Below, piece after piece: positions 28,873 to 45,580 of a stretch of 50,832 nt of DNA. The stretch is from an uncultured bacterium. Lineage in GTDB: Bacteria > Patescibacteriota > Minisyncoccia > UBA6257 > GWB1-50-10. The notes below the pieces were generated by a model that was given only the letters and a program-made list of their open reading frames with translations, was not told the DNA's origin and did not search any database. Every line of letters starts with the position of its first letter. Position 1 is the stretch's first letter. The translations under genes and the position numbers were made by a program. The DNA is taken from contig CAIKKG010000014.1 of assembly GCA_903827975.1 (NCBI GenBank), positions 1 through 50,832 of the forward strand. Reading direction: 5' to 3'.

Positions 28873-28889
28873 GTGTATATATATTTATT

Positions 28890-30544: not shown

Positions 30545-30671
30545 ACAGTTTTAGTATACCCGAGGGGTGTGTCTGTGCAATCGGCCTAATGTGTGGGTTT
30601 GGCAACTAAATCAGGAATCCAAGGGTGTGTCCTCATTCAATTTATGCCAACTAGTGATACACTTTATTCAT

Positions 30672-31295: not shown

Positions 31296-31306
31296 CGTCT
31301 TTCGCC

Positions 31307-31756: not shown

Positions 31757-31917
31757 ACAGTGATTTTACACTTAAAATTTATCTTGTGGTACTTTTTGGT
31801 GAAGTATGAGTATTTTTTGTGAGCAATTACACATACTTGCTTTTCCAAAACACATAACGCAGAGTATGAATAGAACCTAATGGTTTCTTTAAACCATTAA
31901 CAAAAAAAGGAGGATAT

Positions 31918-32328
31918 ATGAGCTCAGATTGTCGCTGTAATCAGTGCGGTTGTACTTTTGAACCTGTTTGGCTTGGCTCCCACTCTCTTTGCTCAGATTG
32001 TGAGAGTGAGGCCAATGAGGCCGCTAGTTTAGCAGCAGCAGAAGCGAGAGAGTCCTTGACGGATATGGGTTACACTGGGGATATTGAAGGCGCTTCTCAT
32101 ACTGTACGCTGTCGCGTTTTTCACAGCCAGGAATCCAGTGGAAGGTTCGAGGGTGGCGATATCCACCGCTGTGCTCGTTGTGAGTGCGAGATTAAGTCAG
32201 ATTTTTCAATGTGTGAAAGTTGCCTCTCAACGGCCAGAGCTGAGAGTGAGGAAAGAGACCGGCAGAGAGAATACGAACAGTCGAAAATTGACTCTGAGCT
32301 TGATAGTATCGTTAGGCGTTATACTTAG
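31918..32328 (+). CDS. hypothetical Cys-rich (double zinc-ribbon-like) protein
   Basis: Strong SD (aaaggaggatatATG). CxCxxCxC...CxxC and CxxCxC...CxxC clusters, an acidic C-terminus, and its own terminator. Confidence 0.6.
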   Translation: MSSDCRCNQCGCTFEPVWLGSHSLCSDCESEANEAASLAAAEARESLTDMGYTGDIEGASHTVRCRVFHSQESSGRFEGGDIHRCARCECEIKSDFSMCESCLSTARAESEERDRQREYEQSKIDSELDSIVRRYT

Positions 32329-32334
32329 TAAATT

Positions 32335-32362
32335 AACCCGCCAAATTGGCGGGTTTTTATTT
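32335..32362. terminator. intrinsic terminator
   Basis: Stem aacccgcc / loop aaatt / stem ggcgggtt, followed by a T-run. Confidence 0.7.
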
Positions 32363-32389
32363 TGTGCTTTTTAGGTAATAGATGGAGTA

Positions 32390-32683
32390 CTAACTCAAAC
32401 AAAAATAAAAAGTAGTGATGATTATGATTTGGAAAAGGATTGCCATTAAAATCCTTTTGATGCCTGCGAACGATAAAATAGAAACGCGATAAAACGCGCT
32501 TGTTTTTGAAGGATTGAATAAATATACCGATAGCGATAAAAAATATATTATAGCTGACATTACCATAACCACCAGAAGATTCGGACCCTCCGGATCATTG
32601 AAAAAAAAGAACATTGTCCTAGAACACACGATGGACATTAGACCCAAGATTAGTAGTGAGGTCTTTTTTGATTTGAAGTACAT
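32390..32683 (-). CDS. hypothetical 3-TM membrane protein (97 aa)
   Basis: Hydrophobic profile. Competes with the overlapping plus-strand ORF 32514..32849, which runs into the hairpin repeats and is judged spurious. Confidence 0.45.
   Translation of the reverse strand: MYFKSKKTSLLILGLMSIVCSRTMFFFFNDPEGPNLLVVMVMSAIIYFLSLSVYLFNPSKTSAFYRVSILSFAGIKRILMAILFQIIIITTFYFCLS
32477..32494 (+). repeat. 18-bp direct repeat, left copy (aatagaaacgcgataaaa)
   Basis: Exact match to 33460..33477. Lies inside the 97-aa ORF. Confidence 0.85.
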
Positions 32684-32707
32684 ATCTAAAATTATATCGG
32701 AAAATTT

Positions 32708-32747
32708 ATCAGCGTCGAAACCTACTAATTTCGACGTGATTTTTACG
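32708..32747 (+). repeat. 40-nt hairpin repeat (2 of 3)
   Basis: atcagcgtcgaaacctactaatttcgacgtgatttttacg: an 8-bp stem plus a T-rich tail. Confidence 0.9.
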
Positions 32748-32828
32748 TATACTTATTTACTTCTTGTGTCCCTAACTGGACATCCGCGAAGCGAATTCGA
32801 GCTTTTTACAAAGCCTAAAGCAATACTA

Positions 32829-32868
32829 ATCAGCGTCGAAACCTACTAATTTCGACGTGATTTTTACG
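32829..32868 (+). repeat. 40-nt hairpin repeat (3 of 3)
   Basis: Identical 40-mer 121 bp after the previous copy, 12 nt from the tRNA-Gln 3' end. Confidence 0.9.
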
Positions 32869-32880
32869 CTTAAAAATCAG

Positions 32881-32951
32881 CTGAGGGACTAGGAATCGGA
32901 CCTAGATTCACGGCTTCAAAGGCCGCTGTCCTACCATTAGACGATCCCTCA
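32881..32951 (-). tRNA. tRNA-Gln (anticodon UUG)
   Basis: Hand fold of the reverse complement: acceptor TGAGGGA/TCCCTCA (U1-A72), discriminator G73; D-arm GTCT-AATGGTA-GGAC; anticodon stem GCGGC/GCCGT with loop CTTTGAA; T-arm CTAGG-TCCGATT-CCTAG. Caveats are a C at position 55 and a 4-nt variable loop. Confidence 0.85.
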
Positions 32952-33200
32952 ATTTTGTAATCTTTCGATAATACTTAATTTCTCTTTTGCTCCTCCATAG
33001 CTTTTGAGAAATTTCTCACGCTGTCTCGCTTCCATTCTATATTGGAAAGATTCTGTATGTATTAACTCGAATGGTCTTCTGCTCTTCGTTGATCTTACGC
33101 GTCCTTTATTATGATATTCCAATCGCTTTGAAATATCACTCGTTAATCCAACGTAGTGTTTATTATCCTTAAGACTTTTGAGAATGTATACAAAATACAT
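32949..33200 (-). CDS. small GIY-YIG nuclease-domain protein (UPF0213/YhbQ-like)
   Basis: MYFVYILKS...HYVGLTSDISKRLEYHN...R..E carries the GIY-YIG signature. Its TGA stop is the first 3 nt of tRNA-Gln. Confidence 0.85.
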   Translation of the reverse strand: MYFVYILKSLKDNKHYVGLTSDISKRLEYHNKGRVRSTKSRRPFELIHTESFQYRMEARQREKFLKSYGGAKEKLSIIERLQN

Positions 33201-33206
33201 AATGCG

Positions 33207-33261
33207 GTCCTACCATTAGCCTGCCCGCGGACGGGCCTACCCGGCCAGGGACGATCCCTCA
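33207..33261 (-). pseudogene. orphan tRNA-Gln 5' fragment A (nt 1-24), interrupted by a 31-nt GC-rich palindrome
   Basis: gtcctaccattag + cctgcccgcggacgggcctacccggccaggg + acgatccctca. The flanking 13+11 nt are identical to 32928..32951 of the intact tRNA. Confidence 0.85.
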
Positions 33262-33385
33262 ATATACTTAGACTATCAGTAATCGTAGTTATATCTACGC
33301 ACCTATCTATCCACGGACTGCGACTCGCTTTGCTCGCTTGCACTGCTGTTTGTAATCAATCGAAGACTCTTGAACAAACAGGGAG

Positions 33386-33436
33386 CCTACCATTAGCCTG
33401 CCCGCAGACGGGTACCCGGCCAGGGACGATCCCGCA
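33386..33436 (-). pseudogene. orphan tRNA-like 5' fragment B, interrupted at the same position by a 29-nt GC-rich palindrome
   Basis: cctaccattag + cctgcccgcagacgggtacccggccaggg + acgatcccgca. Acceptor variant TGCGGGA. No matching 3' half downstream. Confidence 0.75.
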
Positions 33437-33459
33437 ATTGGTGAACTAGTATATTTAAC

Positions 33460-33477
33460 AATAGAAACGCGATAAAA
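33460..33477 (+). repeat. 18-bp direct repeat, right copy
   Basis: aatagaaacgcgataaaa is identical to 32477..32494. Confidence 0.85.
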
Positions 33478-33604
33478 TCTAGGGTTACTATTAAAATGTA
33501 CGTAAACTGAATTTGTGTTTACAAGGCATTGTGAATTAAGCATATTCTAGTTAGTTCAATGTAGGTTTTTGATTCGATATTAACAAACGAAAGGAGGTGT
33601 TTAT

Positions 33605-33700
33605 ATGCGAATTTTGTTTGAAATTACCTCTCACATTTTGAAGATTTGTGCAGATTGTCGTAAGGGCGATCATTGTGGAGAGTGCAATTGTTGCAAGTAG
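33605..33700 (+). CDS. 31-aa Cys-rich micro-protein (MRILFEITSHILKICADCRKGDHCGECNCCK)
   Basis: Hand-translated. Strong SD (aaaggaggtgtttatATG). Six Cys in the last 17 residues. Followed by the hairpin terminator at 33714. Confidence 0.45.
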   Translation: MRILFEITSHILKICADCRKGDHCGECNCCK

Positions 33701-33713
33701 TTGATTTACAAAG

Positions 33714-33740
33714 GGCCACGAAATTTCGTGGCCTTTATAT
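33714..33740 (+). terminator. intrinsic terminator after the micro-ORF
   Basis: Stem ggccacg / loop aaattt / stem cgtggcc, followed by tttatatat. Confidence 0.65.
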
Positions 33741-33770
33741 ATGATTTAAAGCACTTATAATGGATAAGTA

Positions 33771-34250
33771 ATGAAAAATGATTTGAGCAAAAAAATTGAA
33801 GAGCTCAGTTTAATAAATGATGAGTGGGGTGGCATAGATAAGAAAATAGTTATGCTTGTTGCCGCTCTAAATCTATCAGGAGTAAAGACCTCTATTTCTT
33901 GTGCTGGACATGTTGATAGGAGTTCCCAATTTCCTTATGTTACATTTCGCGGTTCGCGGCGGACAGTCGGAAAGTTTTTATCGGAGTTTTATAAGAATCG
34001 AAGAGTCAAAAAAGACACAAGAATTAATATTTATAAAGGTAAGGATGGTTTTTGGCTTTATAGTGGTGCTGGATTTTTAGTGTGGAAAAAAAAGGTACAG
34101 GAAAAAGCAAAAAAAATCTCTGAGGGTAAAAAAGTAGAAAGCCATAATCGCACAAGAGAAGAAAAACTTAAAATTAAAGTTAAGTTACTTTGTTATCAAA
34201 AGGAAATGAACGAATTTGCAAAGTTTTTGGAATATAAAATAAATGGTTAA
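33771..34250 (+). CDS. hypothetical protein (159 aa), Lys-rich C-terminus
   Basis: Clean ORF. No recognised motif. Confidence 0.55.
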   Translation: MKNDLSKKIEELSLINDEWGGIDKKIVMLVAALNLSGVKTSISCAGHVDRSSQFPYVTFRGSRRTVGKFLSEFYKNRRVKKDTRINIYKGKDGFWLYSGAGFLVWKKKVQEKAKKISEGKKVESHNRTREEKLKIKVKLLCYQKEMNEFAKFLEYKING

Positions 34251-34294
34251 AATATATGTGTTTCTGCGCTGAAATATTGTAAAATGATATTAAT

Positions 34295-34540
34295 ATGAAA
34301 AAAAAAACATGTGAGAGTTGTTTGATGCCCCTCTCAAAGGACACGGGGGTTGGAGAGTCAGATAAGTATTGCAGTTTTTGCTTTAGGGATGGAAAGTTGG
34401 TCTATGAAGGAAACGATGTGAATGAGTTTAAGAAAAGAGCACACGAAGGAATGATAAAAAAAGGTATGAATCCCCTTCTCGCGAAATTCTACACATGGAT
34501 GATTGGATTTGCGCCACGATGGAATAATAAACATGAGTAA
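34295..34540 (+). CDS. putative zinc-ribbon domain protein
   Basis: CESCLMPL...YCSFCFRDGKL matches the Zn_ribbon_2-type pattern (CxxCgMPl...YCxxCyxdG). Confidence 0.65.
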   Translation: MKKKTCESCLMPLSKDTGVGESDKYCSFCFRDGKLVYEGNDVNEFKKRAHEGMIKKGMNPLLAKFYTWMIGFAPRWNNKHE

Positions 34541-34946
34541 GACTCATGAGGAGCACATAAAGGATTTTCACACTGCATTTGGGCTTGATATTGGCTCGGA
34601 GCCGACTGTGAGATTATTAAAACTTCGTCGCGCACTTATCGATGAAGAAACAAAAGAATTGTTTGCCGATATTGATTCGGCTATTTTGCATTTGGAAAAA
34701 GGAGAGTTGGTCCCCCATGAGCTCTATGTAAATATGCTAAAGGAGCTTTCTGATGTGCAGGTTGTCGTGTCTGGTACTGCGGTTGCGGTTAAGCCGTTGG
34801 AAAAGTTGGATGAGGCATTTATTCGTGTTCATGAATCGAATATGAGTAAGCTTGGGGATGATGGAAAGCCGATATATCGAGAGGATGGGAAGGTTTTGAA
34901 AGGTCCTAACTATTTTAAACCTGATCTTACTGATCTCGTTTCATAA
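34533..34946 (+). CDS. MazG-like all-alpha nucleoside triphosphate pyrophosphohydrolase
   Basis: FHTAFGL...LIDEETKEL...[13 protein letters not shown]...VHESNMSKL...[15 protein letters not shown] pattern. ATG at 34533 overlaps the preceding gene by 8 nt. Confidence 0.6.
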
Positions 34947-34951
34947 ATACT

Positions 34952-35179
34952 ATGCCACACGAATCGAGCGACCCATTGCACGGAAAGACATTAGAATCCA
35001 TTCTTAATTTTTTAGTTGAGCGATATGGTTGGGGTGAGCTCGGAAATCGAATCAAGATTAAGTGCTTCATGAATGATCCGAGTATTAAATCGAGTCTTAC
35101 ATTTTTACGCAAAACTCCATGGGCGAGAGAAAAGGTTGAATTGTTATATCTAATTACAATTCAGCGCGAACAGGCATAA
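34952..35179 (+). CDS. VF530/DUF2132 family small DNA-binding protein
   Basis: [25 protein letters not shown]...[26 protein letters not shown] is characteristic of DUF2132. Confidence 0.75.
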
Positions 35180-35421
35180 TGTATTACGTTTATATTTTGA
35201 AATGTGCGGATGGGTCTTTATATGCGGGGAGTACGAATAATCTTGAGAAAAGACTGAAGCAACACAACGAAGCAAAGTCGGGGGCGCATTATACGAAAAT
35301 CAGACGACCCGTTGAGCTGGTCTATAAAGAAGAGTGTGCCACGTATTCACTAGCCCGCACACGTGAGGCAGAGATTAAACGCCTTTCGAGAGAGAAGAAG
35401 TTAGGGTTGATTGAGAAATAA
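35179..35421 (+). CDS. small GIY-YIG nuclease-domain protein (second paralog)
   Basis: [28 protein letters not shown]...R..E. The start overlaps the VF530 stop (TAATG). Confidence 0.85.
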   Translation: MYYVYILKCADGSLYAGSTNNLEKRLKQHNEAKSGAHYTKIRRPVELVYKEECATYSLARTREAEIKRLSREKKLGLIEK

Positions 35422-35450
35422 AAAACGCCAGAAGGCGTTTTTCTTTTTGT
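35422..35450. terminator. bidirectional intrinsic terminator
   Basis: Stem aacgcc / loop agaa / stem ggcgtt, with A-run and T-run flanks between convergent genes. Confidence 0.7.
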
Positions 35451-35463
35451 TGTAAGTTGTATG

Positions 35464-36870
35464 TTAAATCTTTTCCAGTATCCCCAAAATCTTTACCATC
35501 ACCTCGGTGTCGCGTTCGCAATACTTCAACATGTTTTCGTAGAGCGCTTTCTCTTCTTCTTTCGGAAGTGTGTGATTCACAAGTGTGAGCCAGCCATTTG
35601 ATGCCTCCATACCCTCCTGAATCTCTAATTCAGAATAGGAAAGCTCTGGTACCATAACAGGCGCCACAACTTTCAATGAGCTACTCTTTCCAAACTCATT
35701 TCGTCGATATAACCTCTCTTTGAAAATAGTCATTAGGTCATACATACGCTTTTTATTCACTGCGCGTAAAAATAGCGCGTATTCTGGATGCATCACTGCC
35801 ATCTCCTTGTTTCTTCCCTTCTCAAATGTCTCATACCAGACAATCACACTTCCTTTTTCTCCTAAGTCCTCCTGCATCTGTTTCAAAAGTGCGGGAATAG
35901 GATTCTCTTTTTCTTTTGCCAAAAAATACTTGTGTGTCGTTGGGCCTCCGCGATTCTCCTGGATATGCACCGAGTACTGAAACGGCATATTCTGATATGG
36001 GTGGAATCCATCAAAAAATGGAATGGCGGGTGCGTAGGTTTCGTAATCAAAAAAGTAGAGTGGATAGACAAGCTTTTGTAACTCCGCCTTTATTGCCGGC
36101 GCGTTGCAAATTTGCTCTCCACGCACTTCGGGTACCGTGGTGCCGAGTGTGGTAACTGCCTCAGGGGAAAGCTTACGTAGAAAATCTAATGCACCATTGG
36201 GGCATAATTTTTTGAATACTACCGCAGGATCTGTATCTCCCGAGATTTTCAATGCATTTAAGGCCCCCGCAATATCCGCCCATATCTCTTTCATCATTTC
36301 GCGGGCATCGTTTGTCACGTCTTCTTTTATGAAGAATCCTTCCGATGGGTCGCCATCACAAAACTCTGCGCGCACCTCTCCCGCGCGGATGAACTCCTTA
36401 TTTACATAGATGATATAACTCTTATCAATCTCTATTCCCGCCTTCTCCCAGCAGATGCGTTGAAATGCAACATCGATAATGTGATTCTCATAGCGCTTTA
36501 ACCCTTCGCCACGTTTGACTGAAGTAGTGCTTTTTACCTCATAAAGGTTCCATTTCTTTGACTCCGCATTGAAAACTAGCATGTCCGCGCGTGAGGTAAG
36601 CTCATCAGTCATTACAGTTGGTTGTATAAGGGTAGTCTTTCCGCTCTCGATTGCCTGCTTTGTGGCTTCAAATCCCTTTATACCAAACCCCTCAATCGCG
36701 AACCCATCAGGAAAAAGGCCTTTTGAAAGCTCATCAATCTCCTTTCCCTCGTCAATTTGCTTTCCTTCTACCACAAGCAACTCCTGAGGAAGGAGGTCTT
36801 TGCGATACATAAAAAGCCATAGGTGGATGGGGCTTTCTAGATACTTCTTAAAATTTGTCTTAGTGAGCAT
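35464..36870 (-). CDS. DUF2779 domain protein (N-terminal Cas4-like PD-(D/E)XK plus C-terminal RNase H-like module)
   Basis: ADMLVF...WNLYEVKSTTSVK nuclease-like core, and LYFFDYETYAPAIPFFDGFHPYQNMPFQYSVHI typical of DUF2779. Confidence 0.7.
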   Translation of the reverse strand: MLTKTNFKKYLESPIHLWLFMYRKDLLPQELLVVEGKQIDEGKEIDELSKGLFPDGFAIEGFGIKGFEATKQAIESGKTTLIQPTVMTDELTSRADMLVFNAESKKWNLYEVKSTTSVKRGEGLKRYENHIIDVAFQRICWEKAGIEIDKSYIIYVNKEFIRAGEVRAEFCDGDPSEGFFIKEDVTNDAREMMKEIWADIAGALNALKISGDTDPAVVFKKLCPNGALDFLRKLSPEAVTTLGTTVPEVRGEQICNAPAIKAELQKLVYPLYFFDYETYAPAIPFFDGFHPYQNMPFQYSVHIQENRGGPTTHKYFLAKEKENPIPALLKQMQEDLGEKGSVIVWYETFEKGRNKEMAVMHPEYALFLRAVNKKRMYDLMTIFKERLYRRNEFGKSSSLKVVAPVMVPELSYSELEIQEGMEASNGWLTLVNHTLPKEEEKALYENMLKYCERDTEVMVKILGILEKI

Positions 36871-36910
36871 GGGTTATTGCCTTTACATTACCTTAATTAA
36901 GGATAATTAG

Positions 36911-36935
36911 AAACTCCAGCGTTTCGCTGGAGTTT
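36911..36935. terminator. 10-bp-stem hairpin, probable terminator
   Basis: aaactccagc / loop gtttc / gctggagttt, followed by ctttggtgctttctt. Confidence 0.45.
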
Positions 36936-36984
36936 CTTTGGTGCTTTCTTAAAAAGTTTATAGCGTTTGTTGATTTAGATTCCC

Positions 36985-37764
36985 CTATCCGCAAGCGCCA
37001 TTCACTGGTTTATATCCTTCGTGCGTTTCATCAATTAGATTTTGTAAGAACTCCACATTTTCTTTATAGAATTTCACCTTGCACTTAGTTTCCAGATCTA
37101 TTGTCGCGCTTGTGCTTACTCTTTGTTCGAGAAAACATCTGTTACTTAGATACGAATCAACCTGCGAGTGCCATTTTATAATTCCTTCTTTAATCGAATC
37201 ATACGAAAATGCTTGGCATAACTCCGTTTCATTTATAAAACCATCTAATTTTTTCAGGTATTCTTTGTACTTAGACTCCTGCAATTTTTTAAATGATTGA
37301 TAGAGCCCATCAACGCAATTATTATATGCACCGCTACTTTCGGACATGTCACACTCCATGGTCGGGTTTTTCGTGAGCTTATCGTTATATATCTTCATAT
37401 TTCTATCGCAATTCTCCTCGAAATTTCGCTGGATTTCTGCGGGGCCAAATTCCTGTGTTGAGGAGCCCTCCCCGTATTCCATATAGTCGCTCAAAACTAG
37501 ATTTGCGACCTCCCAATTTATATTGTCGGTTGCTGGGCATACCTTCGAAATCGTGGAGGTTCCCATAGCGTCTGAATAGAAATAAAGAAGAGATATCTCC
37601 CCATCTGAGGTATTCGGCTTCTGTGCATTTTTTAATCCGTTTGTTTTATAAAAATAAAATGAAACTATCGCAACAATTAGTAGCGCTAAGATTATTAATA
37701 CATTCCCCTTCTTTTTAAGAATTTCCATTGTTTTCTTTTTTATCTTCCTCATAATATCCTTCAT
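36985..37764 (-). CDS. hypothetical membrane-anchored Cys-containing extracytoplasmic protein
   Basis: Lys-rich N-terminus, one TM (VLIILALLIVAIVSFYF), and multiple Cys. Start uncertain, with in-frame Met codons at 37752 and 37728. Confidence 0.5.
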   Translation of the reverse strand: MKDIMRKIKKKTMEILKKKGNVLIILALLIVAIVSFYFYKTNGLKNAQKPNTSDGEISLLYFYSDAMGTSTISKVCPATDNINWEVANLVLSDYMEYGEGSSTQEFGPAEIQRNFEENCDRNMKIYNDKLTKNPTMECDMSESSGAYNNCVDGLYQSFKKLQESKYKEYLKKLDGFINETELCQAFSYDSIKEGIIKWHSQVDSYLSNRCFLEQRVSTSATIDLETKCKVKFYKENVEFLQNLIDETHEGYKPVNGACG

Positions 37765-38056
37765 GCTTCATAATCAGATAAATCTGCCAGGCGTAGCGGA
37801 ATGGAAGGATTGGCCCTAGGAAATTTCCAGCTCGATTCTTTGGGGTGTATTCATCCACAATATCTAGAACATGGAACTGTTCTTCATCTGTCACACTTCT
37901 GCCGATATGTTTAGAAAGATATTCCATCATATCGTCTATATCCGTTATATTCATCTCAATTTCCTCTGGGTCTTTTGCAATCACATCTAAGAGTGTGTAT
38001 TTCGGAATGATGTCGGAGAGTTTTTTCCTTTTCGTGTGCTTATCCATATTGTGCAT
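37715..38056 (-). CDS. hypothetical protein (113 aa)
   Basis: ORF divergent from msrA. No motif recognised. Confidence 0.45.
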   Translation of the reverse strand: MHNMDKHTKRKKLSDIIPKYTLLDVIAKDPEEIEMNITDIDDMMEYLSKHIGRSVTDEEQFHVLDIVDEYTPKNRAGNFLGPILPFRYAWQIYLIMKHEGYYEEDKKENNGNS

Positions 38057-38080
38057 TCTCTATTTAGGTATAATAACAAT

Positions 38081-38647
38081 ATGACAGATGTACGCAATGA
38101 GCAGAATGCGAATGGAATAGCAGTATTTGGAGGAGGGTGCTTTTGGTGCACGGAGGCGATATTTAAGGAGCTTAGGGGTGTGATTGGGGTTACTCCCGGA
38201 TATACGGGTGGAACGGTTGCGAATCCTACATATGAGGATGTCTCGAGTGGGACGACGGGACATGTGGAGGCCACAAAGATTGAGTATGACCAAAAGGAAG
38301 TCTCATATAAGACACTTCTTACGGTATTTTTTGCGACTCATGACCCAACGAGTTTGAACCGACAAGGGAATGATGTGGGTACGCAGTATCGATCCGCAAT
38401 CTTTTATGCGGATGAGATGCAGAAAGAGGAGGTGAAAAAGTTTATTGAGGAATTAAATAAGGAGGGTGGGAATGCGATTGTGACTGAGCTTAATCCCCTT
38501 TCTGAATTCTATGTGGCTGAGGATTATCATATGAATTATTACGAGAGTCATAAGAATGCACCATATTGCATGCTTGTGATTGCGCCGAAGCTTGAGAAAC
38601 TACATCACACATTTGCAGAATTATTAAAATCAAACGAACAAAAATAA
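38081..38647 (+). CDS. msrA: peptide-methionine (S)-S-oxide reductase
   Basis: AVFGGGCFWCTEA and GYTGG motifs. ATG at 38081 lies inside the 38036 ORF. Confidence 0.93.
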   Translation: MTDVRNEQNANGIAVFGGGCFWCTEAIFKELRGVIGVTPGYTGGTVANPTYEDVSSGTTGHVEATKIEYDQKEVSYKTLLTVFFATHDPTSLNRQGNDVGTQYRSAIFYADEMQKEEVKKFIEELNKEGGNAIVTELNPLSEFYVAEDYHMNYYESHKNAPYCMLVIAPKLEKLHHTFAELLKSNEQK

Positions 38648-38653
38648 TTATTA

Positions 38654-39034
38654 ATGAAAAAAGACGAAGAATTACCGAAGGATTTGTATGCTATCGCTCG
38701 AGAGAAAGGAACCGAGATGCCCTACACCGGAAAGTATTGGAATGAGCATTCTGCAGGGACATATAAATGTGCGATATGTGGCGCGGAGCTTTTTAGTTCG
38801 GATACGAAGTTTGATTCAGGAACTGGGTGGCCGAGTTTTAGTGAGCCGACTAACTTACAGCACATACAACTAACAACTGATAACAGCGGAGGGATGCAAC
38901 GGACCGAGGTTACGTGCAAAAATTGTAGGGCACATCTTGGACATTTGTTTGATGATGGGCCGAGTGAGAAAGGTGGAAAGAGATATTGTATTAATTCCGC
39001 ATGTCTTGAGTTAGATAAGAAAGGAGTACAATAA
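38654..39034 (+). CDS. msrB: peptide-methionine (R)-S-oxide reductase
   Basis: CAICGAELFSSDTKFDSGTGWPSF, CKNCRAHLGHLFDDGP and RYCINS motifs. Confidence 0.95.
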   Translation: MKKDEELPKDLYAIAREKGTEMPYTGKYWNEHSAGTYKCAICGAELFSSDTKFDSGTGWPSFSEPTNLQHIQLTTDNSGGMQRTEVTCKNCRAHLGHLFDDGPSEKGGKRYCINSACLELDKKGVQ

Positions 39035-39040
39035 AGACAT

Positions 39041-39337
39041 ATGGACTTCTTTAAAAGACATTATGAATACCTTAAGGATAATCCTGAAGGGCTATGGTTT
39101 AAGCGAAAGCTATATGGATGGGGTTGGACGCCAGTAAGATGGCAGGGATGGGCTGTAATAGGCCTTTTTGTGGCGTATATGACCTGGATTATCGTTGGAT
39201 TGCCTAAGGGAAGGAATCCAGTGGATGCGGTTATGTATCTCTATTTAGCGAAGGTTGCTGTGGGTGTCGCCGTGCTTATATTCATCTGCTACAAGAAAGG
39301 AGAAAAGCCTCGGTGGCAGTGGGGGTTGAAGAAATAA
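39041..39337 (+). CDS. hypothetical 2-TM membrane protein
   Basis: 98-aa ORF 6 nt after msrB with two hydrophobic helices. Confidence 0.55.
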   Translation: MDFFKRHYEYLKDNPEGLWFKRKLYGWGWTPVRWQGWAVIGLFVAYMTWIIVGLPKGRNPVDAVMYLYLAKVAVGVAVLIFICYKKGEKPRWQWGLKK

Positions 39338-39349
39338 ATAACTACAAAC

Positions 39350-39380
39350 ATGCACGCAGAAATGCGTGTTTGTTTTTTTA
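39350..39380 (+). terminator. intrinsic terminator
   Basis: Stem cacgca / loop gaaa / stem tgcgtg, followed by tttgttttttt. Confidence 0.6.
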
Positions 39381-39456
39381 TTGATGCTATTGTAAAATTC
39401 TCCCTGGTACGATAAGCTTTTCGTCGGTACCTTAACCAAAAAGGAGAGCAAATAAT

Positions 39457-40482
39457 ATGAATACAGAAAAGAAACATCAGTCGCTTATGAAGAAGCATCA
39501 CACAGAAAGTGTGAAGAAGAACCTTGCAGGAGTTTCGACTCCGCATGGCTTTACTCTTGATGATGCTATTCGTTCAGGTGTGGAAAATGAAGATTCGGGT
39601 GTCGGCATTTATGCCGGTGACGAAGAGTCGTACGTTCTTTTTTCAGAGATTTTTGATCCCGTTATTGAAGAGTATCACGGTGGCTACAAGCCAACTGATA
39701 TGCATACTGCGGATCTTGATTCAGAGAAGCTTATTGCGGACAGCATTGATCCTGATGGCACCTTTGTCGTCTCGACACGCATCCGTGTGGGCCGTAACTT
39801 GAAGGGCACAGGATTCTCCCCCGCCATCAAGCAGGACGAGCGTCGTGAAGTGGAACAGAATGTAGTGAATGCACTTTCTACGTTGTCCGGCGAATTGAGC
39901 GGAGAGTATTATCCGATTTTGGGCATGAACGAAGAAATTCGTGAAAGGCTCGTCACTGACCATTTCTTATTTAAGCAGGGTGACCGATTCCTCGCATCCG
40001 CAGGCGCAAACCGCGACTGGCCGGAAGGACGAGGTATTTTCCACTCAGGCGACAAGCGTTTTCTTGTCTGGGTCAATGAAGAAGACCAGCTTCGCATTAT
40101 TTCCATGCAGGAAGGTGGTGGCATCCGAGAGGTGTTCGAACGTCTCTCAGGTGGCATCCGCACATTGCAGGAGAAACTTGCGTTCGCATACACGGACCAT
40201 CTCGGATATCTTTCGAGCTGCCCGACGAACCTCGGAACTGCGATGCGCGCCAGCGTGCATGTGAAGTTGCCGAAGCTAGGCAAGAACGAGGAGCACTTGA
40301 AGCGAATCTGTAAGGAATTGAAACTCTCTGTGCGTGGCATTAATGGTGAGCACTCAGATAGTGAAGGTGGTGTCTATGACATTTCGAACAAACAGCGCCT
40401 TGGAATTTCCGAGGTGAATGCAGTAAACCTGCTCATTCGAGGTGTTGGCACTCTCATTATGCTTGAAAAGTGCGCAGACTAA
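39457..40482 (+). CDS. two-domain phosphagen kinase, arginine-kinase type (ATP:guanidino phosphotransferase)
   Basis: N-terminal guanidino-specificity region SGVENEDSGVGIYAGDEESY..FDPVIEEYHGG. Catalytic region DHFLFKQGDRFL, VWVNEEDQLRIISMQ, active-site CPTNLGT, VRGINGEHSDSEGGVYDISNKQRLG. Collinear with arthropod arginine kinases as I recall them. Confidence 0.9.
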   Translation: MNTEKKHQSLMKKHHTESVKKNLAGVSTPHGFTLDDAIRSGVENEDSGVGIYAGDEESYVLFSEIFDPVIEEYHGGYKPTDMHTADLDSEKLIADSIDPDGTFVVSTRIRVGRNLKGTGFSPAIKQDERREVEQNVVNALSTLSGELSGEYYPILGMNEEIRERLVTDHFLFKQGDRFLASAGANRDWPEGRGIFHSGDKRFLVWVNEEDQLRIISMQEGGGIREVFERLSGGIRTLQEKLAFAYTDHLGYLSSCPTNLGTAMRASVHVKLPKLGKNEEHLKRICKELKLSVRGINGEHSDSEGGVYDISNKQRLGISEVNAVNLLIRGVGTLIMLEKCAD

Positions 40483-40504
40483 TGTTTCGCAAGTAATTAA
40501 AAAA

Positions 40505-40537
40505 ACTCCCGCTAATCCCGGGAGTTTATTTTTTTCA
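40505..40537 (+). terminator. intrinsic terminator after the kinase gene
   Basis: Stem actcccg / 7-nt loop / stem cgggagt, followed by ttattttttt. Confidence 0.7.
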
Positions 40538-40585
40538 TTAAAACAAAAAACCCCGATTTAATTCGGAGTTTTTTGTTTTCTTACT

Positions 40586-43500
40586 TTATCGTGATGTCTG
40601 CATTTTCTTTAACACATCCATCATGTAATTTAACTGTTCAATTATTGATGCCTGAATTTGAGAATTATCTGGCTTAATAATAGCGGGTTGGATAATTATA
40701 TTTCCCGTACTATATTCGCATGCCTGCGATTGCCAGTTATCTGTGGACAAGCAGACATTTAGTTTATACACGCCAGGGTCAACATTTGGTGAAAATATTG
40801 CAGAATTTGAACCAGCAGTACCCTGAGTCGATTGCTGTTCCTGCTGATACCCAGAGTCCGTTGTTAAATAGATTTTTATTGATCCATTAACATTTTGATT
40901 CCATTTTGCAGTAATGGATCTCATCGGCATGTATGAGCCAGACTGTGGAGATGTCAGGGTAACTGTAGGAGTTACACTTATTATTGGTGTTGGTATAAGA
41001 GTGAAGCTCGATAAATTGCTATAGCCGGTACCTTTGGCAATAACACGAATATTATAGTACTGACTAGAACCAGATCCCTGCAATTTTAGAACCTCATCTG
41101 TAAGTTTAAGGATTACATCATCTGCCATTGTGAACTGAACAGAGTCTGTTGTGGAATTTGTTGAGAATGAGATGTTATTTGAGGTTATCGTAGTTTTCAG
41201 CACCCCTCCACTATAAAACTCAACTGCATAAACATATGCGAGATTTGTACCATTAATAGTAACTGTGGTATTTATATCTCCGCGTACAGGATTAACCGAC
41301 GTTATTTTTGGCGATGTTTCTGAATTGAGGCAGAATGTACCATCGCTTTGATCAAGATTTGTTCCGTATGGTAATTGCAAAGCAATTTTATAGTCGCAAC
41401 CCGCTACTGGCGTTGAGTTATTAGTGGTTGCGCCTGCGTCCCACCATATGGTGCCTGATCCTATACTTCCATCATCTGAACCGGTTTGAAGGGTGGAAAA
41501 AATCGTACCCACATTAACACCTCCTTTGACCAGAACAACACTTGGCTTTGCGCCAGACTTGTATTTATACGTTATGATCGTCGACTGGCCCTGGGTGAAC
41601 TGTTCTCCACCATTTGGACTTACTACTCTATATGTCGATGTTGCAACGCTATCACCCCTCATTGTTACGGTGGCAAGTGACGCACTGTTGATGGAAAGCT
41701 GGAACGTATCCCCATTATTTCCCGTGTTCGCTGTCTTAACTGTTAGATATCTGAAGCCGCCGATAGCAATATCGCGAGCCATCTTAGAAACATTTGAGAT
41801 ATCAAGGAAGCAGATTCCCTTATCGCAAGGAGTGTTTGATCCATACGAGTACATCGTGTCGCTTTGTGAGCCACCATCAGCAGAAGCGAACAGATTAAAT
41901 TTCATTTCTGACTGAGTGCTACCGCTATTCGAAATCGTGAATGGTTCATTCAGAACATATAGAGATGAGCCATTGTTTGTGAGCTTGAATACTCCAATGG
42001 TTTGTCCCGCTGAGGTTCCAACTTGCGTTGCGCTGAGTGGTGAAATTGAAGTTATTGTAGGAGTTACACTTATTATTGGTGTTGGTATAAGAGTGAAGCC
42101 ATAGGAATTGCTATAGCCGGTACCTTTGGCAATAACACGAATATCATAGTACTGACTAGAACCAGATCCCTGTAACTTTAGAACCTCATTTGCAAGTTTA
42201 AGGATTACATTATCTGCCATTGTGAACCGAACAGAGTCTGTTGTGGAATTTTTTGAGAATGAGATGTTATTTGAGGTTATCGTAGTTTTCAGCACCCCTC
42301 CACTATAAAACTCAACTGCATAAACATATGCAAGATTTGTACCATTAATAGTAACGGCGGTATCTATATCTCCGCGTACAGGATTAACCGACGTTATTTT
42401 AGGAGCGTCAGACTGAAGTGCATTTAATGTGAAATTAAAACGGTTACTATTGCATCCGCCTTGGCAGGCATTTGTAACCACTCCAAGTTGGTATGTGCCT
42501 GGTTCCACATTTGCAGCAAAGATGCTAGCTACGGTAAATACAACACTATTTGCGGATACTGAAGATGGGAAGATGGTCGCCGCAAGAGAGTTATTTGAGT
42601 TGTAGAATTCAACATTTGATGTGCCGGAAAGATTAGTACCATAAATAGTTACACTAGTTCCAGAAGTTCCTGAGGTTGGCGAAATTGAAGAGATTGATGG
42701 CATGCTTTTGGTATTTGGATAAGTAAGCGTGAAAGCGACCTTGTTACTTGTTCCGTTTGATGTTACAACATCAATCCAAAATGTTCCTGAATATCCGAGT
42801 AAATCCATTAAGCTCTTTGTTATCAAAAACCCTGCTGGACTTGCAGCTGAAATATCTGAACCCGATAGTGTGGCTAGAATATTTCCATTACCAGAAACAA
42901 ATTCAATCGACTTTACAACGCCGTAGATATTATTTCCATATATAGCAATAGTATTATTTATCGTACCCTGTGATGGTCTGATATCTGTAATATATGGGGT
43001 TGCTGAATTAGATTCAATTAGGATGCTAATGCTAACTACATTGCTGCCAACGCCACCACCTAATAAAACCTGAATTACATCAGAACCAACTCCTGGGGGT
43101 ACTACAAATGTAAGTTGTGAACTGGAGAGTACTTTTGCCCATGCACCCACTGAAGTTTTTAGAAATACTACTGACGCACCTTCTGTAAAGTTAGTCCCAT
43201 ATACTGTAACAGTATCACCTATTTTTGCAGTTGTCGGATAAATTGAAGTGATTGTAGGAGTGGTAGATGTGGATGTTATTATTTTTGAACTAATTACTGT
43301 AAATGACTGAGTTCTCGCAATTGCGCAGCTATATGTTTTCTCACAGAGGCCCGTCTGGGTCATTGAGAGTGTGTATGATGCCGGTATTACATTTGTCGGG
43401 ATTTTAAACGCCTCCTTATTAGCATAAGCCGTAGAATATGATTTTACGTTTCCGAGAGTGTACTCATAACCGCCCTTAACATCGGATGTTGAGATTCTTA

Positions 43501-44200
43501 CTACAAACTGGTCACCAATTTTTGATGGTTTGTATGTTAATCCAATCTTGTCACCGACGGTGAAGGTTTCTCCGCCAGATGGGTTTACAATTGAAACCGA
43601 TGAAGATGGCTTCTTCTTTGCTAATTCTGTTTCGGAGCCACCAGAAGTTGCAGATGAGCTATCTAATGAAGCACTTCCTGATGCTGAACTGTTTGATGAA
43701 GAATTGTCTGAGGTTGAGCTAACATCTGAGCCAGATGACTGTGTTACGCAAGAACTTAGACCACCAAGTGCTTTAAGTGTTGCGCTATCAACCATTCCTG
43801 AGACACCAAGACCGTTTTCATCCTGAAAACTCTTAAGAGCAATCTGTGTCATTGAACCAAAATAACCCGTCGGTTTAGCGGATAAGTATCCGTTATCGTT
43901 TAGGATTTTTTGTAATTTTGATACGGCTGAGCTTGAGCTTCCTTTCTTTAGTCCGCTAAAGCCTGATGTGTCACAGGACGTAGTTACTGAGGTTATTGAA
44001 TCAGATGAAGCACTTGAGCCAGACGATGAGCCTGACTGGCTATTTTGCGAATCTACTTTTGCTTGAAGCAGCTTTAACTGCGCCATCAAAGCCTGAATCT
44101 GAGAGGACAGATCTGATGTCTGTGCCTGACCTTTTGCTGGGATGACTACTCCTGCAAAAATGAGAACTACTGCAAAACCTATGACGAGAAACCTTTTCAT
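40586..44200 (-). CDS. 1204-aa secreted surface protein: signal peptide, PG_binding_1-like domain, Ser-rich linkers, multiple IPT/TIG-like repeats
   Basis: MKRFLVIGFAVVLIFAGVVIPAKG signal. LQKILNDNGYL...GYFGSMTQIALKSFQ peptidoglycan-binding repeat. Recurrent ITS(I/V)xPxxGxxxTxVTIxGTN(F/L) modules. Confidence 0.85.
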   Translation of the reverse strand: MKRFLVIGFAVVLIFAGVVIPAKGQAQTSDLSSQIQALMAQLKLLQAKVDSQNSQSGSSSGSSASSDSITSVTTSCDTSGFSGLKKGSSSSAVSKLQKILNDNGYLSAKPTGYFGSMTQIALKSFQDENGLGVSGMVDSATLKALGGLSSCVTQSSGSDVSSTSDNSSSNSSASGSASLDSSSATSGGSETELAKKKPSSSVSIVNPSGGETFTVGDKIGLTYKPSKIGDQFVVRISTSDVKGGYEYTLGNVKSYSTAYANKEAFKIPTNVIPASYTLSMTQTGLCEKTYSCAIARTQSFTVISSKIITSTSTTPTITSIYPTTAKIGDTVTVYGTNFTEGASVVFLKTSVGAWAKVLSSSQLTFVVPPGVGSDVIQVLLGGGVGSNVVSISILIESNSATPYITDIRPSQGTINNTIAIYGNNIYGVVKSIEFVSGNGNILATLSGSDISAASPAGFLITKSLMDLLGYSGTFWIDVVTSNGTSNKVAFTLTYPNTKSMPSISSISPTSGTSGTSVTIYGTNLSGTSNVEFYNSNNSLAATIFPSSVSANSVVFTVASIFAANVEPGTYQLGVVTNACQGGCNSNRFNFTLNALQSDAPKITSVNPVRGDIDTAVTINGTNLAYVYAVEFYSGGVLKTTITSNNISFSKNSTTDSVRFTMADNVILKLANEVLKLQGSGSSQYYDIRVIAKGTGYSNSYGFTLIPTPIISVTPTITSISPLSATQVGTSAGQTIGVFKLTNNGSSLYVLNEPFTISNSGSTQSEMKFNLFASADGGSQSDTMYSYGSNTPCDKGICFLDISNVSKMARDIAIGGFRYLTVKTANTGNNGDTFQLSINSASLATVTMRGDSVATSTYRVVSPNGGEQFTQGQSTIITYKYKSGAKPSVVLVKGGVNVGTIFSTLQTGSDDGSIGSGTIWWDAGATTNNSTPVAGCDYKIALQLPYGTNLDQSDGTFCLNSETSPKITSVNPVRGDINTTVTINGTNLAYVYAVEFYSGGVLKTTITSNNISFSTNSTTDSVQFTMADDVILKLTDEVLKLQGSGSSQYYNIRVIAKGTGYSNLSSFTLIPTPIISVTPTVTLTSPQSGSYMPMRSITAKWNQNVNGSIKIYLTTDSGYQQEQQSTQGTAGSNSAIFSPNVDPGVYKLNVCLSTDNWQSQACEYSTGNIIIQPAIIKPDNSQIQASIIEQLNYMMDVLKKMQTSR
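40964..41308 (-). repeat. 345-bp intragenic direct repeat, copy 1
   Basis: Aligns without indels to 42056..42400. Roughly 15-20 mismatches by eye. Confidence 0.85.
42056..42400 (-). repeat. 345-bp intragenic direct repeat, copy 2
   Basis: Offset of 1092 bp (364 codons, in frame) from copy 1. Confidence 0.85.
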
Positions 44201-44274
44201 AATGAACTGGATATATTTTATTATTTAAATTGTGTATCCGACCTTTCATTAAACTGCTGTTACTATTAAAAATA

Positions 44275-44284
44275 CCCCCCCCCC
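44275..44284. repeat. homopolymeric C10 (G10 on the coding strand of the neighbouring genes)
   Basis: aaatacccccccccccactggg. Lies 75-84 nt upstream of the surface-protein ATG (44200) and 46 nt after the upstream gene's stop. Confidence 0.9.
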
Positions 44285-44329
44285 ACTGGGAAACGCAATG
44301 AAAATTTGGGGATAAGTATTAGGAGTTTT

Positions 44330-45580
44330 CTATTCTACTACTGAATTTCCCGCGACAAAGCCAGTCGTCCAGCAGAGCTGAAGACTATATCCGCCAGATG
44401 GCCTATCAATGTCTAAAATATCGCCTACGAGATAAAGATTTGGATATAGACGTGAACGCATTGTTTTAAAATCAACCTCGCTGAGTGTTACCCCACCACT
44501 TGTGACAATCGCCTTATCAAGACCAAGGAGTTTATCAACATTCATTGGAATCGCTTTTAATAAATGAATGAGCTTTATGCGCGACTCACGTGTTACGCTG
44601 TGGCACTTTGTTTCTGGATTTATTCCAGAGAGTTCAATAATAATCGGTGCGATTGATGAGGGAATAAGATTTACGAGTGCATTTCCAAAATTTTTCTTAT
44701 CGTGCTCCTTAAACAATTCTTGAAGTTTTGTATTTAGCATTCCGTAGTCCTCCTTTGGTAATACATCAAGCGATAGAATCACGCTCCCATATTTTAAGAG
44801 CTCGCCCACATCCTTACTCATATTTAATATTGTTGGACCACTTAATCCAACATGTGTGAAAAGAATCTTTCCTTTTGAAACGCCCTGCTTCTCATTATTT
44901 TGAAAAATTGTGATTTTAACATTCTCCAAGCTAACACCTGAAAGTTGTCTGACCCATTTATCTTTTATTGCGATAGGTACAAGTGATGCCTCTGGCTTTA
45001 TGATTGTGTGGCCAATGTCTCTTAACCACGAATATCCGTCTCCAGTTGAGCCAGTTTCTGGGCGTGAGGTTCCTCCTGTTGCTATGATTACAGAATTTCC
45101 TCGGATTATTTTCTTATTTTTTAATTTAACTCCGATTATTTTTTTATCCTCGCGAGCTATCTCAACAACTCCCGAATTTGAAAGAATGGTCACATTGTGT
45201 GCCTTCATATATTCCGAAAGGACGTGTAGCACGGATTTTGAGGAGTCTGATGTTGGAAATACGCGCAGACCAGCCTCTACTTTCGTAGGCATTCCTTTTG
45301 TATGAAAAAATTCTAGTGTCTCCCCTACGCTCCACTGAGAAAATGCGGAAAATAAAAATTGTTCTGCCACCTTGAATTTTGCTAGAAGCTTTCTTGTATC
45401 AGTCTCCGCATTTGTGAGATTGCACCTGCCTCCACCCGTTATTAGAAGCTTCTTCCCGAGGGACTCATTTTTCTCAACTAAAAGCACGCGCGCGCCTTTC
45501 TCTGCGGCTCTTCCGGCTGACATCATTCCAGCAGGACCACCACCAACCACAATTACGTCCCAGACTGAGTTATCTTCCAT
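44330..45580 (-). CDS. HI0933/BaiN-like FAD-dependent oxidoreductase
   Basis: DVIVVGGGPAGMMSAGRAAEKGARVLLVEKN dinucleotide fold, followed by GKKLLITGGGRCNLTN. Confidence 0.85.
   Translation of the reverse strand: MEDNSVWDVIVVGGGPAGMMSAGRAAEKGARVLLVEKNESLGKKLLITGGGRCNLTNAETDTRKLLAKFKVAEQFLFSAFSQWSVGETLEFFHTKGMPTKVEAGLRVFPTSDSSKSVLHVLSEYMKAHNVTILSNSGVVEIAREDKKIIGVKLKNKKIIRGNSVIIATGGTSRPETGSTGDGYSWLRDIGHTIIKPEASLVPIAIKDKWVRQLSGVSLENVKITIFQNNEKQGVSKGKILFTHVGLSGPTILNMSKDVGELLKYGSVILSLDVLPKEDYGMLNTKLQELFKEHDKKNFGNALVNLIPSSIAPIIIELSGINPETKCHSVTRESRIKLIHLLKAIPMNVDKLLGLDKAIVTSGGVTLSEVDFKTMRSRLYPNLYLVGDILDIDRPSGGYSLQLCWTTGFVAGNSVVE

Follow-up and report, generated by a model that had tools for sequence, protein, structure and literature searches.

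The arginine kinase locus

The window, a stretch of 50,832 nucleotides, forms the leading 50.8 kb of a contig of 140 kb from a Patescibacterium (CPR) genome and holds, 39 kb in, an intact arginine (phosphagen) kinase gene (hereafter AK; 39457..40482, plus strand). In the list of open reading frames the gene has an ATG start and 341 codons plus stop, and reading the sequence upstream revealed a Shine–Dalgarno-like AGGAG 10 nt 5′ of the ATG (39442..39446, plus strand). A consensus scan and inspection of the sequence placed a terminator-like hairpin with an 11-bp stem and a T run at 39344..39373 (plus strand), where it closes an upstream unit of msrA, msrB, and a 98-aa reading frame. A second, two-way hairpin, called on both strands, lies at 40503..40527 between AK and a convergent gene, whose product is a surface protein with peptidoglycan-binding and IPT-repeat matches in Pfam. 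The two hairpins agree with an earlier note on this DNA, which had described a stand-alone gene with terminators on both sides; the 3-kb region contained 8 terminator-like sites against 2.1 expected.

The two domains that the earlier note had claimed were both matched by Pfam, and the four motifs that it quoted were all found in the AK translation. The N-terminal guanidino-substrate domain (PF02807) spans residues 6–71 (39472..39669, plus strand; E 1.3e-27, 96.5 bits against a cut-off of 25.7, profile positions 2–67 of 67), and its span was the same in a search of the whole genome. The catalytic ATP:guanidino phosphotransferase domain (PF00217, E 1.2e-73) covers residues 131–338 (39847..40470, plus strand). 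AK is the sole PF00217 match in the genome, in which neither McsB nor a second PF00217 protein was found.

Fold, residues, and substrate class

Collinearity with arthropod arginine kinases, another of the earlier claims, held: residues 8–338 of AK aligned without a gap to residues 24–354 of the shrimp enzyme 4BHL (331 residues). Through the gapless offset of +16 to the Limulus numbering, we audited 18 substrate and catalytic residues (D62, S63, G64, V65, G66, Y68, R126, R193, E225, R229, C271, T273, R280, H284, R309, E314, H315, and R330), and all 18 were conserved in AK. The substrate-specificity loop D46-S-G-V-G-I-Y52 (39592..39612, plus strand; Limulus D62–Y68) is identical to that of the shrimp enzyme in sequence and length, and the reactive-cysteine motif C255-PTNLGT (40219..40239, plus strand; C255 being Limulus C271) is present in the translation and passed the same audit. 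The arginines that presumably bind the nucleotide phosphates (R110, R213, R264, R293, and R314; Limulus R126, R229, R280, R309, and R330) are all in place, as are the two glutamates that we take to be catalytic (E209 and E298; Limulus E225 and E314), both roles being those established for the Limulus structures. Across 33 relatives of AK, 15 of the audited residues were invariant and H268 nearly so, while the loop residues G48 and V49 were in neither group; within the cysteine motif, C255, P256, T257, N258, G260, and T261 were invariant.

The AlphaFold model of AK (pLDDT 91.8, pTM 0.89) superposed in Foldseek on the transition-state structures of Limulus arginine kinase (1BG0/1P50) with a TM score of 0.92–0.93 and an rmsd of 1.9–2.2 Å. 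Single-unit arginine kinases in the PDB matched AK at E values of 1e-105 to 1e-114, and arginine kinase chains scored above the creatine, lombricine, glycocyamine, and taurocyamine kinase units; the specificity loop of the Schistosoma taurocyamine kinase is different and shorter. AK thus shares with the arthropod enzymes (Limulus polyphemus, 1BG0/1M15; Litopenaeus vannamei, 4BG4/4BHL) the two-domain fold, the loop, and the audited residues, but it is only about 50% identical to them in Foldseek, is about 16 residues shorter at the N terminus, is encoded by a bacterial gene with a Shine–Dalgarno site and hairpin terminators, and falls in a separate clade. The best sequence match in the PDB was the two-unit arginine kinase of the sea anemone Anthopleura japonica (4RF6), each unit of which is 52–53% identical to AK. 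That enzyme differs in being a tandem of two units and in having a 3-residue insert and a 1-residue gap relative to AK, and it showed no supported grouping with the CPR clade described below.

McsB has the PF00217 catalytic domain in common with AK but no PF02807 domain, whereas AK has PF02807 and a free-arginine loop. The five NCBIfam models for McsB-type protein-arginine kinases gave AK 83–142 bits against cut-offs of 381–679 and covered only residues ~98–340; McsB chains in the PDB likewise matched only residues ~98–339, at E values of about 1e-20. Pfam, the residue audit, the PDB matches, and the fold agree that the gene encodes a phosphagen kinase of two domains whose specificity loop is of the arginine type, and not McsB, as the earlier note had maintained on both counts.

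Host energy metabolism and the proposed role

The host genome is 0.76 Mb in size and 97.4% complete, and in it we found phosphoglycerate kinase (PGK) but neither the alpha and beta subunits of ATP synthase nor acetate kinase, in keeping with the earlier presumption of a minimal energy metabolism. The cell's ATP apparently comes solely from glycolytic substrate-level phosphorylation. Ornithine carbamoyltransferase was not found in the genome, and arginine synthesis by the ornithine route is apparently absent. We also considered an arginine deiminase pathway and rejected it, the one candidate being a 304-aa protein of the ADI/DDAH superfamily with no ornithine carbamoyltransferase beside it in the genome. 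The search for an ATP/ADP translocase (PF03219) gave no match, but the control matched nowhere either and the search is uninformative.

The integrity of the gene, its family, fold, and residues, and its selection, distribution, and gene order were observed directly. For AK we infer the substrate, the direction of flux, the physiological role, and the history of gain and loss, and we consider a joint explanation probable: a working arginine kinase with an ATP-buffering role, belonging to a lineage of CPR bacteria and vertically inherited. The enzyme would be an ATP:L-arginine N-phosphotransferase (EC 2.7.3.3). To judge from the family, the N-terminal domain and the D46–Y52 loop would hold free L-arginine, R110, R213, R264, R293, and R314 the nucleotide phosphates, and E209, E298, and C255 would position the guanidinium for a reversible transfer of the gamma-phosphate from ATP to arginine. 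Imported arginine would then feed a phosphoarginine pool from which ATP may be buffered or held in reserve over short periods. Arginine kinase expressed in Escherichia coli and yeast buffered ATP and improved recovery from transient stress (PMC6429109). We identified neither an arginine importer nor a phosphoarginine-consuming partner. The neighbors of AK were not conserved either: 12 proteins encoded near AK in the window, tested at 15 other AK loci, gave only chance matches of small proteins, so the gene context offers no hint at the role.

A bolder extension, which we regard as rather unlikely, is that in Paceibacteria without ATP synthase AK and imported arginine provide the cell's only energy reserve, or cash in the phosphoarginine of a host, and that the phosphagen system recurs as an adaptation among ultra-small bacteria short of energy instead of being a stray gene. 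Were that so, the reserve could carry host-dependent cells through periods without a host or meet sudden demands, for example during attachment or uptake. ATP synthase was absent in six of seven AK-bearing lineages, against 47% of a class sample and 72% of a family-plus-order sample, and AK-free members of the genus lack it as well. We therefore set aside a tie between AK and the loss of ATP synthase, the trend being weak and the absence being common in the samples and in AK-free genus members.

Among the alternatives, AK might act on a guanidino substrate other than L-arginine, such as agmatine, D-arginine, glycocyamine, taurocyamine, or another compound. Specificity has shifted several times in the family, and the ADI/DDAH-superfamily protein is a second guanidino-modifying enzyme elsewhere in the genome; however, the DSGVGIY loop is that of arthropod arginine kinases, the counterparts of Y68, E225, C271, and E314 are all present, the Schistosoma loop is unlike it, and creatine, glycocyamine, and lombricine kinases score below arginine kinases, which makes another substrate improbable. 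The reaction of phosphagen kinases is freely reversible and CPR bacteria are generally host-dependent, and AK could also run in reverse, making ATP and arginine from ADP and phosphoarginine taken from a host or the surroundings, for example from an AK-bearing protist or bacterium. Such energy parasitism, in place of a self-charged buffer, would suit the tight ATP supply of a cell for which neither ATP synthase nor acetate kinase was found and the position of AK next to a gene for a peptidoglycan-binding, IPT-repeat surface protein. Against it, we know of no phosphoarginine transporter and saw none, the neighbors of AK vary among AK-bearing genomes, and phosphoarginine is labile and intracellular; we give this direction of flux little credence. 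Very improbable is an McsB-like protein-arginine kinase or regulator that marks proteins and makes no free phosphagen. The common catalytic domain and the developmental phenotype of Myxococcus xanthus Ark (PMC11492440) would allow for it, but AK carries an N-terminal substrate-clamping domain absent from McsB, its McsB-type scores are far below the cut-offs, McsB chains match only its catalytic core (residues ~98–339), and the sole match to a low-molecular-weight phosphatase in the genome is fragmentary and interrupted by a stop codon.

Composition, gene order, and descent

The composition of AK is atypical. At 49.0%, its G+C content lies above the mean for genes of 39.7% (SD 3.8; z 2.4; 98th percentile), its GC3 is 51.5% against 33.7% for genes, and only 0.8% of 1,026-bp windows genome-wide reach 49% G+C. 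The segment at 35.4–40.6 kb has 42.7% G+C against 39.7% (SD 1.7) in windows of the same size, and the raised G+C that the earlier note had estimated from spot counts was thus recovered for both the gene and the segment. EF-Tu and RpsL have a GC3 of 41–42%, 10 points below that of AK, and expression-linked codon bias was rejected as the sole cause. The highest GC3 values in the genome belong to short hypothetical or mobile-element genes. The GC offset of AK recurs in sister species with different background GC.

Comparison by blastn and tblastn with the two nearest relatives (G003 and G004) placed AK in a variable stretch of 17.3 kb (27050..44330), bounded by dnaX (25913–27049) and an HI0933-like flavoprotein gene (44330–45580), both identified by Pfam. 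The two relatives have a collinear site without this stretch, and of its content only a tRNA-Gln gene, predicted by ARAGORN (32880..32951, minus strand), matches in their genomes, at 96–97%. This one conserved anchor inside the stretch lies 9–13 kb from AK in two sister species (G006 and G007), in which the order tRNA-Gln, AK, ABC-F is kept; in a third (G001) the order from AK to ABC-F is kept and the tRNA-Gln is on another contig. A contig from a more distant CPR bacterium likewise has AK, the HI0933-like gene, and ABC-F in this sequence. The stretch as a whole has an ordinary G+C content of 40.0% against 38.4% in the rest of the window, and among those of its genes that were run against Pfam no integrase was seen. 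With AK close to the same tRNA gene in sister species, a long-lived variable region is a better fit than a single mobile unit.

In the IQ-TREE phylogeny, AK fell in a strongly supported clade (100/98) of CPR and metagenome sequences, which contains a high-GC (60–66%) subclade, excludes all eukaryote rows, and stands apart from a Campylobacterota AK clade, whose 28 rows include every one of the 23 from Campylobacterota. AK is 61–78% identical to other CPR proteins, then 54–59% to Campylobacterota and 51–54% to animal arginine kinases. The tree gives no firm order for the deep branches that separate the clades of CPR, Campylobacterota, and eukaryotes, so it is compatible with an ancient transfer either way; named Myxococcus and Desulfotalea sequences are not among its rows. 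Within the genus, five of seven other species carry an orthologue, and a single clade of the genus copies was not rejected (AU p 0.29). The orthologues are under purifying selection, with dN/dS of 0.08–0.15 between members of the clade whose comparison was unsaturated and 0.06–0.09 for the window gene against its orthologues, and dS was saturated between the window gene and every orthologue compared. To judge from this saturation and from the gene order and GC offset common to relatives, AK is not a recent arrival. Most likely, the ancestor of the genus already had it, it passed down with the genome, and the two nearest relatives lost it; their lack of the gene indicates that it is dispensable. 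With dS saturated, vertical descent plus loss is not separable from transfer within the genus.

Phosphagen systems are textbook physiology of animals and protists; with arginine kinase, animals store the energy of ATP as phosphoarginine. Bacterial examples come chiefly from a few Proteobacteria, and their origin, ancient or by transfer, is a matter of debate (PMC6429109, PMC11492440). Characterized bacterial enzymes include those of Desulfotalea, Myxococcus, and Sulfurovum (PMC11492440), and a "cluster A" (Sulfurovum lithotrophicum, Nitratifractor, and Oceanithermus) has been separated from a "cluster B/B′" (Desulfotalea psychrophila and M. xanthus Ark) (PMC11492440, PMC6429109). AK resembles them in its single two-domain unit of about 340 aa and its sparse, patchy distribution and debated origin, but in the tree it does not group with the Sulfurovum/Nitratifractor type of "cluster A": the Campylobacterota proteins, among them those of Sulfurovum, Nitratifractor, and Sulfurimonas, form their own clade at the 54–59% identity given above. 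Its host lies outside the Proteobacteria-centered distribution in the bacterial AK reviews consulted. Bacterial phosphagen kinases, which the earlier note had called rare, turned out to be less so than assumed: a motif-seeded scan of 185,579 species genomes returned 403 stretches encoding a relative. AK probably belongs to a bacterial lineage that occurs sparsely but repeatedly among Patescibacteria. We found no paper linking arginine or phosphagen kinases with Patescibacteria, CPR, or Parcubacteria, only GenBank labels. Two entries named "phosphagen kinase" from Candidatus Paceibacterota bacterium (MFA6407188.1 and MFA6364860.1) are two-domain CPR proteins of about 340 aa; they cluster with P0053, itself 65% identical to AK, and this cluster includes members of the genus. 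An "arginine kinase" from Candidatus Niyogibacteria bacterium CG10_big_fil_rev_8_21_14_0_10_46_36 (P0172), also a two-domain CPR protein of about 340 aa, was listed only as a relative of P0081 and lies outside both the tree and the comparison with AK. A known kind of enzyme is here extended to a new lineage, a bacterial branch common to CPR bacteria. This conserved and selected lineage widens the distribution of phosphagen kinases in bacteria, and a genome whose ATP supply is apparently glycolytic only lends itself to a straightforward test of the value of an ATP buffer for a minimal, host-dependent cell.

Of the earlier suggestion of a metazoan-type, foreign gene, the two-domain, arthropod-like architecture and the atypical composition stood and the animal derivation did not. 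A recent import from an animal or protist with the donor's composition retained would account for GC and GC3 values that greatly exceed the genome mean and also surpass those of native genes with high expression, for the position beside a tRNA gene in a variable region that the nearest relatives do not have, and for the sea-anemone enzyme as best PDB match. That reading is already disfavored, and highly improbable, given the higher identity to CPR than to animal proteins, the exclusion of all eukaryote rows from the CPR clade, the saturated dS against orthologues, a GC offset that recurs in sister species of differing background GC, and a start context and terminators of bacterial type.

An assembly or binning artefact, with AK misjoined or misbinned from another organism, might be suspected from the gene's composition and from several small contigs of the bin that look foreign, but it is effectively refuted by the depth of AK within the long contig, core genes collinear with those of relatives on both sides (dnaX and the HI0933-like gene), an estimated contamination of 0.27%, and recurrence in other samples. 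An identical AK protein with the same gene neighborhood occurs at six listed places from different samples, and at the three whose DNA was compared, 7.6–12.9 kb across both flanks are 99.3–100% identical to the window; AK and its flanks were thus independently assembled at least three times, which settles the contig membership that the earlier note had wanted confirmed. For annotation, such genes in CPR bins should not be dismissed as contamination from eukaryotes. Between assemblies with 0.7% divergence in the flanks, AK itself differs at zero or one synonymous base.

A two-domain arginine kinase gene

The feature under study is the arginine kinase (AK) gene at 39457-40482 (+), an open frame that starts at ATG and spans 341 codons, with an AGGAG 10 nt upstream of the start (39442-39446, +). 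The four peptide motifs quoted in the earlier note were all present in the translation, and Pfam confirmed the claimed presence of both phosphagen-kinase domains, the N-terminal PF02807 at residues 6-71 (E 1.3e-27) and the catalytic PF00217 at residues 131-338 (E 1.2e-73). The protein had also been set apart from the protein-arginine kinase McsB, and rightly so: five NCBIfam protein-arginine-kinase (McsB-type) models matched the catalytic core only, with 83-142 bits against cut-offs of 381-679. Among solved structures, the two units of sea-anemone (Anthopleura) AK matched best. Next came about 20 AKs from arthropods, trypanosomes and other sources, at E 1e-105 to 1e-114; the kinases of creatine, lombricine and glycocyamine scored lower, and McsB reached only about 1e-20.

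The proposed collinearity with arthropod AKs was borne out by a gapless alignment of residues 8-338 to residues 24-354 of shrimp AK (4BHL), so that Limulus/shrimp numbering equals query numbering plus 16. All 18 audited residues, the roles of which we take from what is established for the Limulus transition-state structure, were conserved: one set covers the arginine loop D62-S-G-V-G-I-Y68, the other R126, R193, E225, R229, C271, T273, R280, H284, R309, E314, H315 and R330. Fifteen of the 18 were invariant among 33 aligned relatives and H268 (query numbering) was nearly so, with the loop residues G48 and V49 (query numbering) variable. An AlphaFold model built from the alignment of the 33 relatives had a pLDDT of 91.8 and matched Limulus AK (1BG0/1P50) at a TM score of 0.92-0.93. 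The identity of the enzyme as an arginine kinase is well supported.

Hairpins followed by T runs lie on the 5' side (39344-39373) and the 3' side (40503-40527) of the gene, in agreement with the earlier description of a monocistronic gene with terminators on both sides; because of these hairpins, the sequence fits monocistronic transcription. Upstream are msrA, msrB and a gene for a 98-aa membrane protein, and downstream, in convergent orientation, is the gene for a peptidoglycan-binding IPT-repeat surface protein of 1204 aa. The latter contains an in-frame 345-bp duplication (40964-41308 and 42056-42400, 95.4% identical).

Relatives and phylogeny

The closest proteins, at 61-78% identity, had 330-347 aa and were encoded on metagenome contigs of up to 653 kb. 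A motif-seeded scan of a collection of 185,579 species genomes identified 403 stretches encoding a relative; among those with a name, the nearest came from MAGs of Paceibacterota, Jorgensenbacteria, Brennerbacteria and Saccharibacteria (61-76%). A second tier consisted of many Campylobacterota (Sulfurovum, Sulfurimonas, Nitratifractor, Arcobacteraceae; 54-59%) and a few others. Identity to the window AK was 51-54% for animal AKs (anemone units, snail, beetle), 49% for fish CK and 42-45% for the units of fluke taurocyamine kinase.

We inferred a tree of 80 rows with IQ-TREE (LG+C20+F+G4 by PMSF), a set without named Myxococcus or Desulfotalea ("cluster B") sequences. The window AK fell in a clade (support 100/98) with all 14 rows from Patescibacteria (CPR), 23 metagenome rows and one Bacteriovoracaceae row. 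Outside it were a 28-row clade holding all 23 Campylobacterota rows, and every eukaryote row; the deep order of the CPR-dominated, Campylobacterota and eukaryote groups was not settled by the 80-row tree. Because its clade is separate from every eukaryote row, the enzyme does not derive from arthropod AKs, and the label "metazoan-type" stands for collinearity but not for descent. Within the CPR-dominated clade, a six-row subclade (100/100) comprised AKs from contigs of 60-66% G+C. On two of these contigs, L100 (SRR29054605) and L102 (JGI 3300050332), the genes adjoining AK had almost no matches in the genome under study.

Proposed origin within a variable region

The AK gene lies in a variable stretch of 17.3 kb with 23 ORFs (27050-44330), bounded by dnaX on one side and the gene for an HI0933-like flavoprotein on the other. 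The stretch contains tRNA-Gln, GIY-YIG genes, DUF2779, msrA/msrB, AK and the giant surface protein. PF02807 was found in five of the seven other species of the genus, in 1/29 genomes from other genera of the family, 1/24 from other families of the order and 4/400 others sampled from the class, and in none of 400 further genomes drawn from the phylum as a whole. The AK-bearing loci had no immediate AK neighbors in common, sharing regional order instead. In G006 and G007, two species of the genus, tRNA-Gln, AK and an ABC-F gene follow the same order as here, and in these and G001 the ABC-F gene and its neighbor are 75-80% identical to 61.4-64.5 kb of the contig. On L101, a more distant CPR contig of 335 kb (JAXOUH010055902.1, GCA_034680565.1), an AK of 62% identity has an HI0933-like gene directly after it, 58% identical to 44339-45589, and then an ABC-F gene, 66% identical to contig positions 61366-62844 (the three at L101:8001-12831). 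The order is the one seen here minus the surface-protein gene. The contig numbering of that assembly exceeds 55,000, and it could be a metagenome or a host genome.

The simplest account is that AK is an ancestral gene of a long-lived variable region, lost in the line of G003 and G004. These two nearest relatives lack AK, with ABC-F proteins 90% (G003) and 86% (G004) identical to that of the genome under study; the collinear site holds 3.3 kb with tRNA-Gln as its sole content in G003 and different DNA in G004. Their lack of the gene counts against ancestry, and AK may instead have spread by transfer within the genus, although the regional order shared with G006 and G007 speaks for the ancestral gene. 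A single clade for the AK copies of the genus was not rejected (AU p 0.29). Pairs within the CPR clade with unsaturated dS had dN/dS of 0.08-0.15. Since dN against orthologues is 0.17-0.19 with dS > 2, the gene is, on this sequence divergence, under selection and no recent arrival.

The raised G+C seen earlier was confirmed: the AK gene has 49.0% where genes average 39.7% (z 2.4), and its GC3 is 51.5% against 33.7% (z 2.6); in G+C, the gene is among the top 0.8% of equal-sized windows of the whole genome. Native highly expressed genes all had lower GC3 (EF-Tu 41%, RpsL 42%, EF-G 35%, GroEL 32%). In sister species of much higher background G+C the AK excess was +7 to +10 points in G+C and +18 to +26 in GC3, and no excess was seen in G002 and G005. 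A fresh import does not fit, because the offset follows the host genome. The top-GC3 ORFs of the bin were short genes, either hypothetical or from mobile elements, and most of them sat on small contigs; the highest, some resolvase-like or transposase-like, are on C8, C13, C21, C36, C3 and C22 (2-5 kb), contigs that could represent mobile DNA or a binning error.

The window makes up the first 50.8 kb of a contig of 140 kb. A chimeric origin, or contamination by eukaryotic DNA, can effectively be set aside: the identical protein in the same neighborhood was found at six listed places from different samples, three of them compared as DNA (99.3-100% identity over 7.6-12.9 kb across both flanks), and core genes of sister species are collinear with both sides of the region. 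The assembly has 760 kb in 42 contigs, with estimated completeness of 97.4% and contamination of 0.27%, and NCBI labels named relatives from the same genus Candidatus Jorgensenbacteria or Candidatus Paceibacterota, which makes this a genome of the Patescibacteria (CPR).

Predicted role and energy metabolism

The protein would reversibly phosphorylate free L-arginine by ATP, and the phosphoarginine pool could buffer ATP whenever supply and demand briefly diverge. This is what AK does when expressed in Escherichia coli and yeast (PMC6429109); for the organism itself we infer a physiological role as an ATP buffer. Characterized bacterial AKs come from Desulfotalea, Myxococcus and Sulfurovum and have been treated as a Proteobacteria-centered trait, possibly transferred (PMC11492440, PMC6429109). 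Our literature search found no paper mentioning CPR AKs. In GenBank, relatives from CPR genomes already carry the label "phosphagen kinase" or "arginine kinase"; the enzyme is of a known kind, its interest in this lineage being physiological.

The genome encodes no second PF00217 protein and hence no McsB. ATP synthase alpha/beta (PF00006) was not found in any of the eight genomes of the genus, this one included (93-98% complete); of 401 genomes sampled from the class, about 53% have it. As acetate kinase and ornithine carbamoyltransferase were not found either, and phosphoglycerate kinase (PGK) is present, as is enolase, the gene content suggests that ATP supply rests on glycolysis alone and that arginine would have to be imported. 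Of seven AK-bearing lineages counted as independent, six lack ATP synthase, compared with 47% of the genomes sampled from the class, uncorrected for phylogeny, and the AK-free members of the genus lack it likewise; a tie between AK presence and ATP synthase loss is a lead only.

Beyond the window, at C31:29345-30337, this genome without ornithine carbamoyltransferase encodes another enzyme related to arginine, a 304-aa protein of the guanidino-modifying ADI/DDAH superfamily that scored 57 bits with the Pfam model ADI and 53 bits with DDAH_eukar. A match to the low-molecular-weight phosphatase family PF01451 at C39:6165-6434 covers profile positions 1-87 of 144 with an internal TAA, and is possibly a decayed gene.
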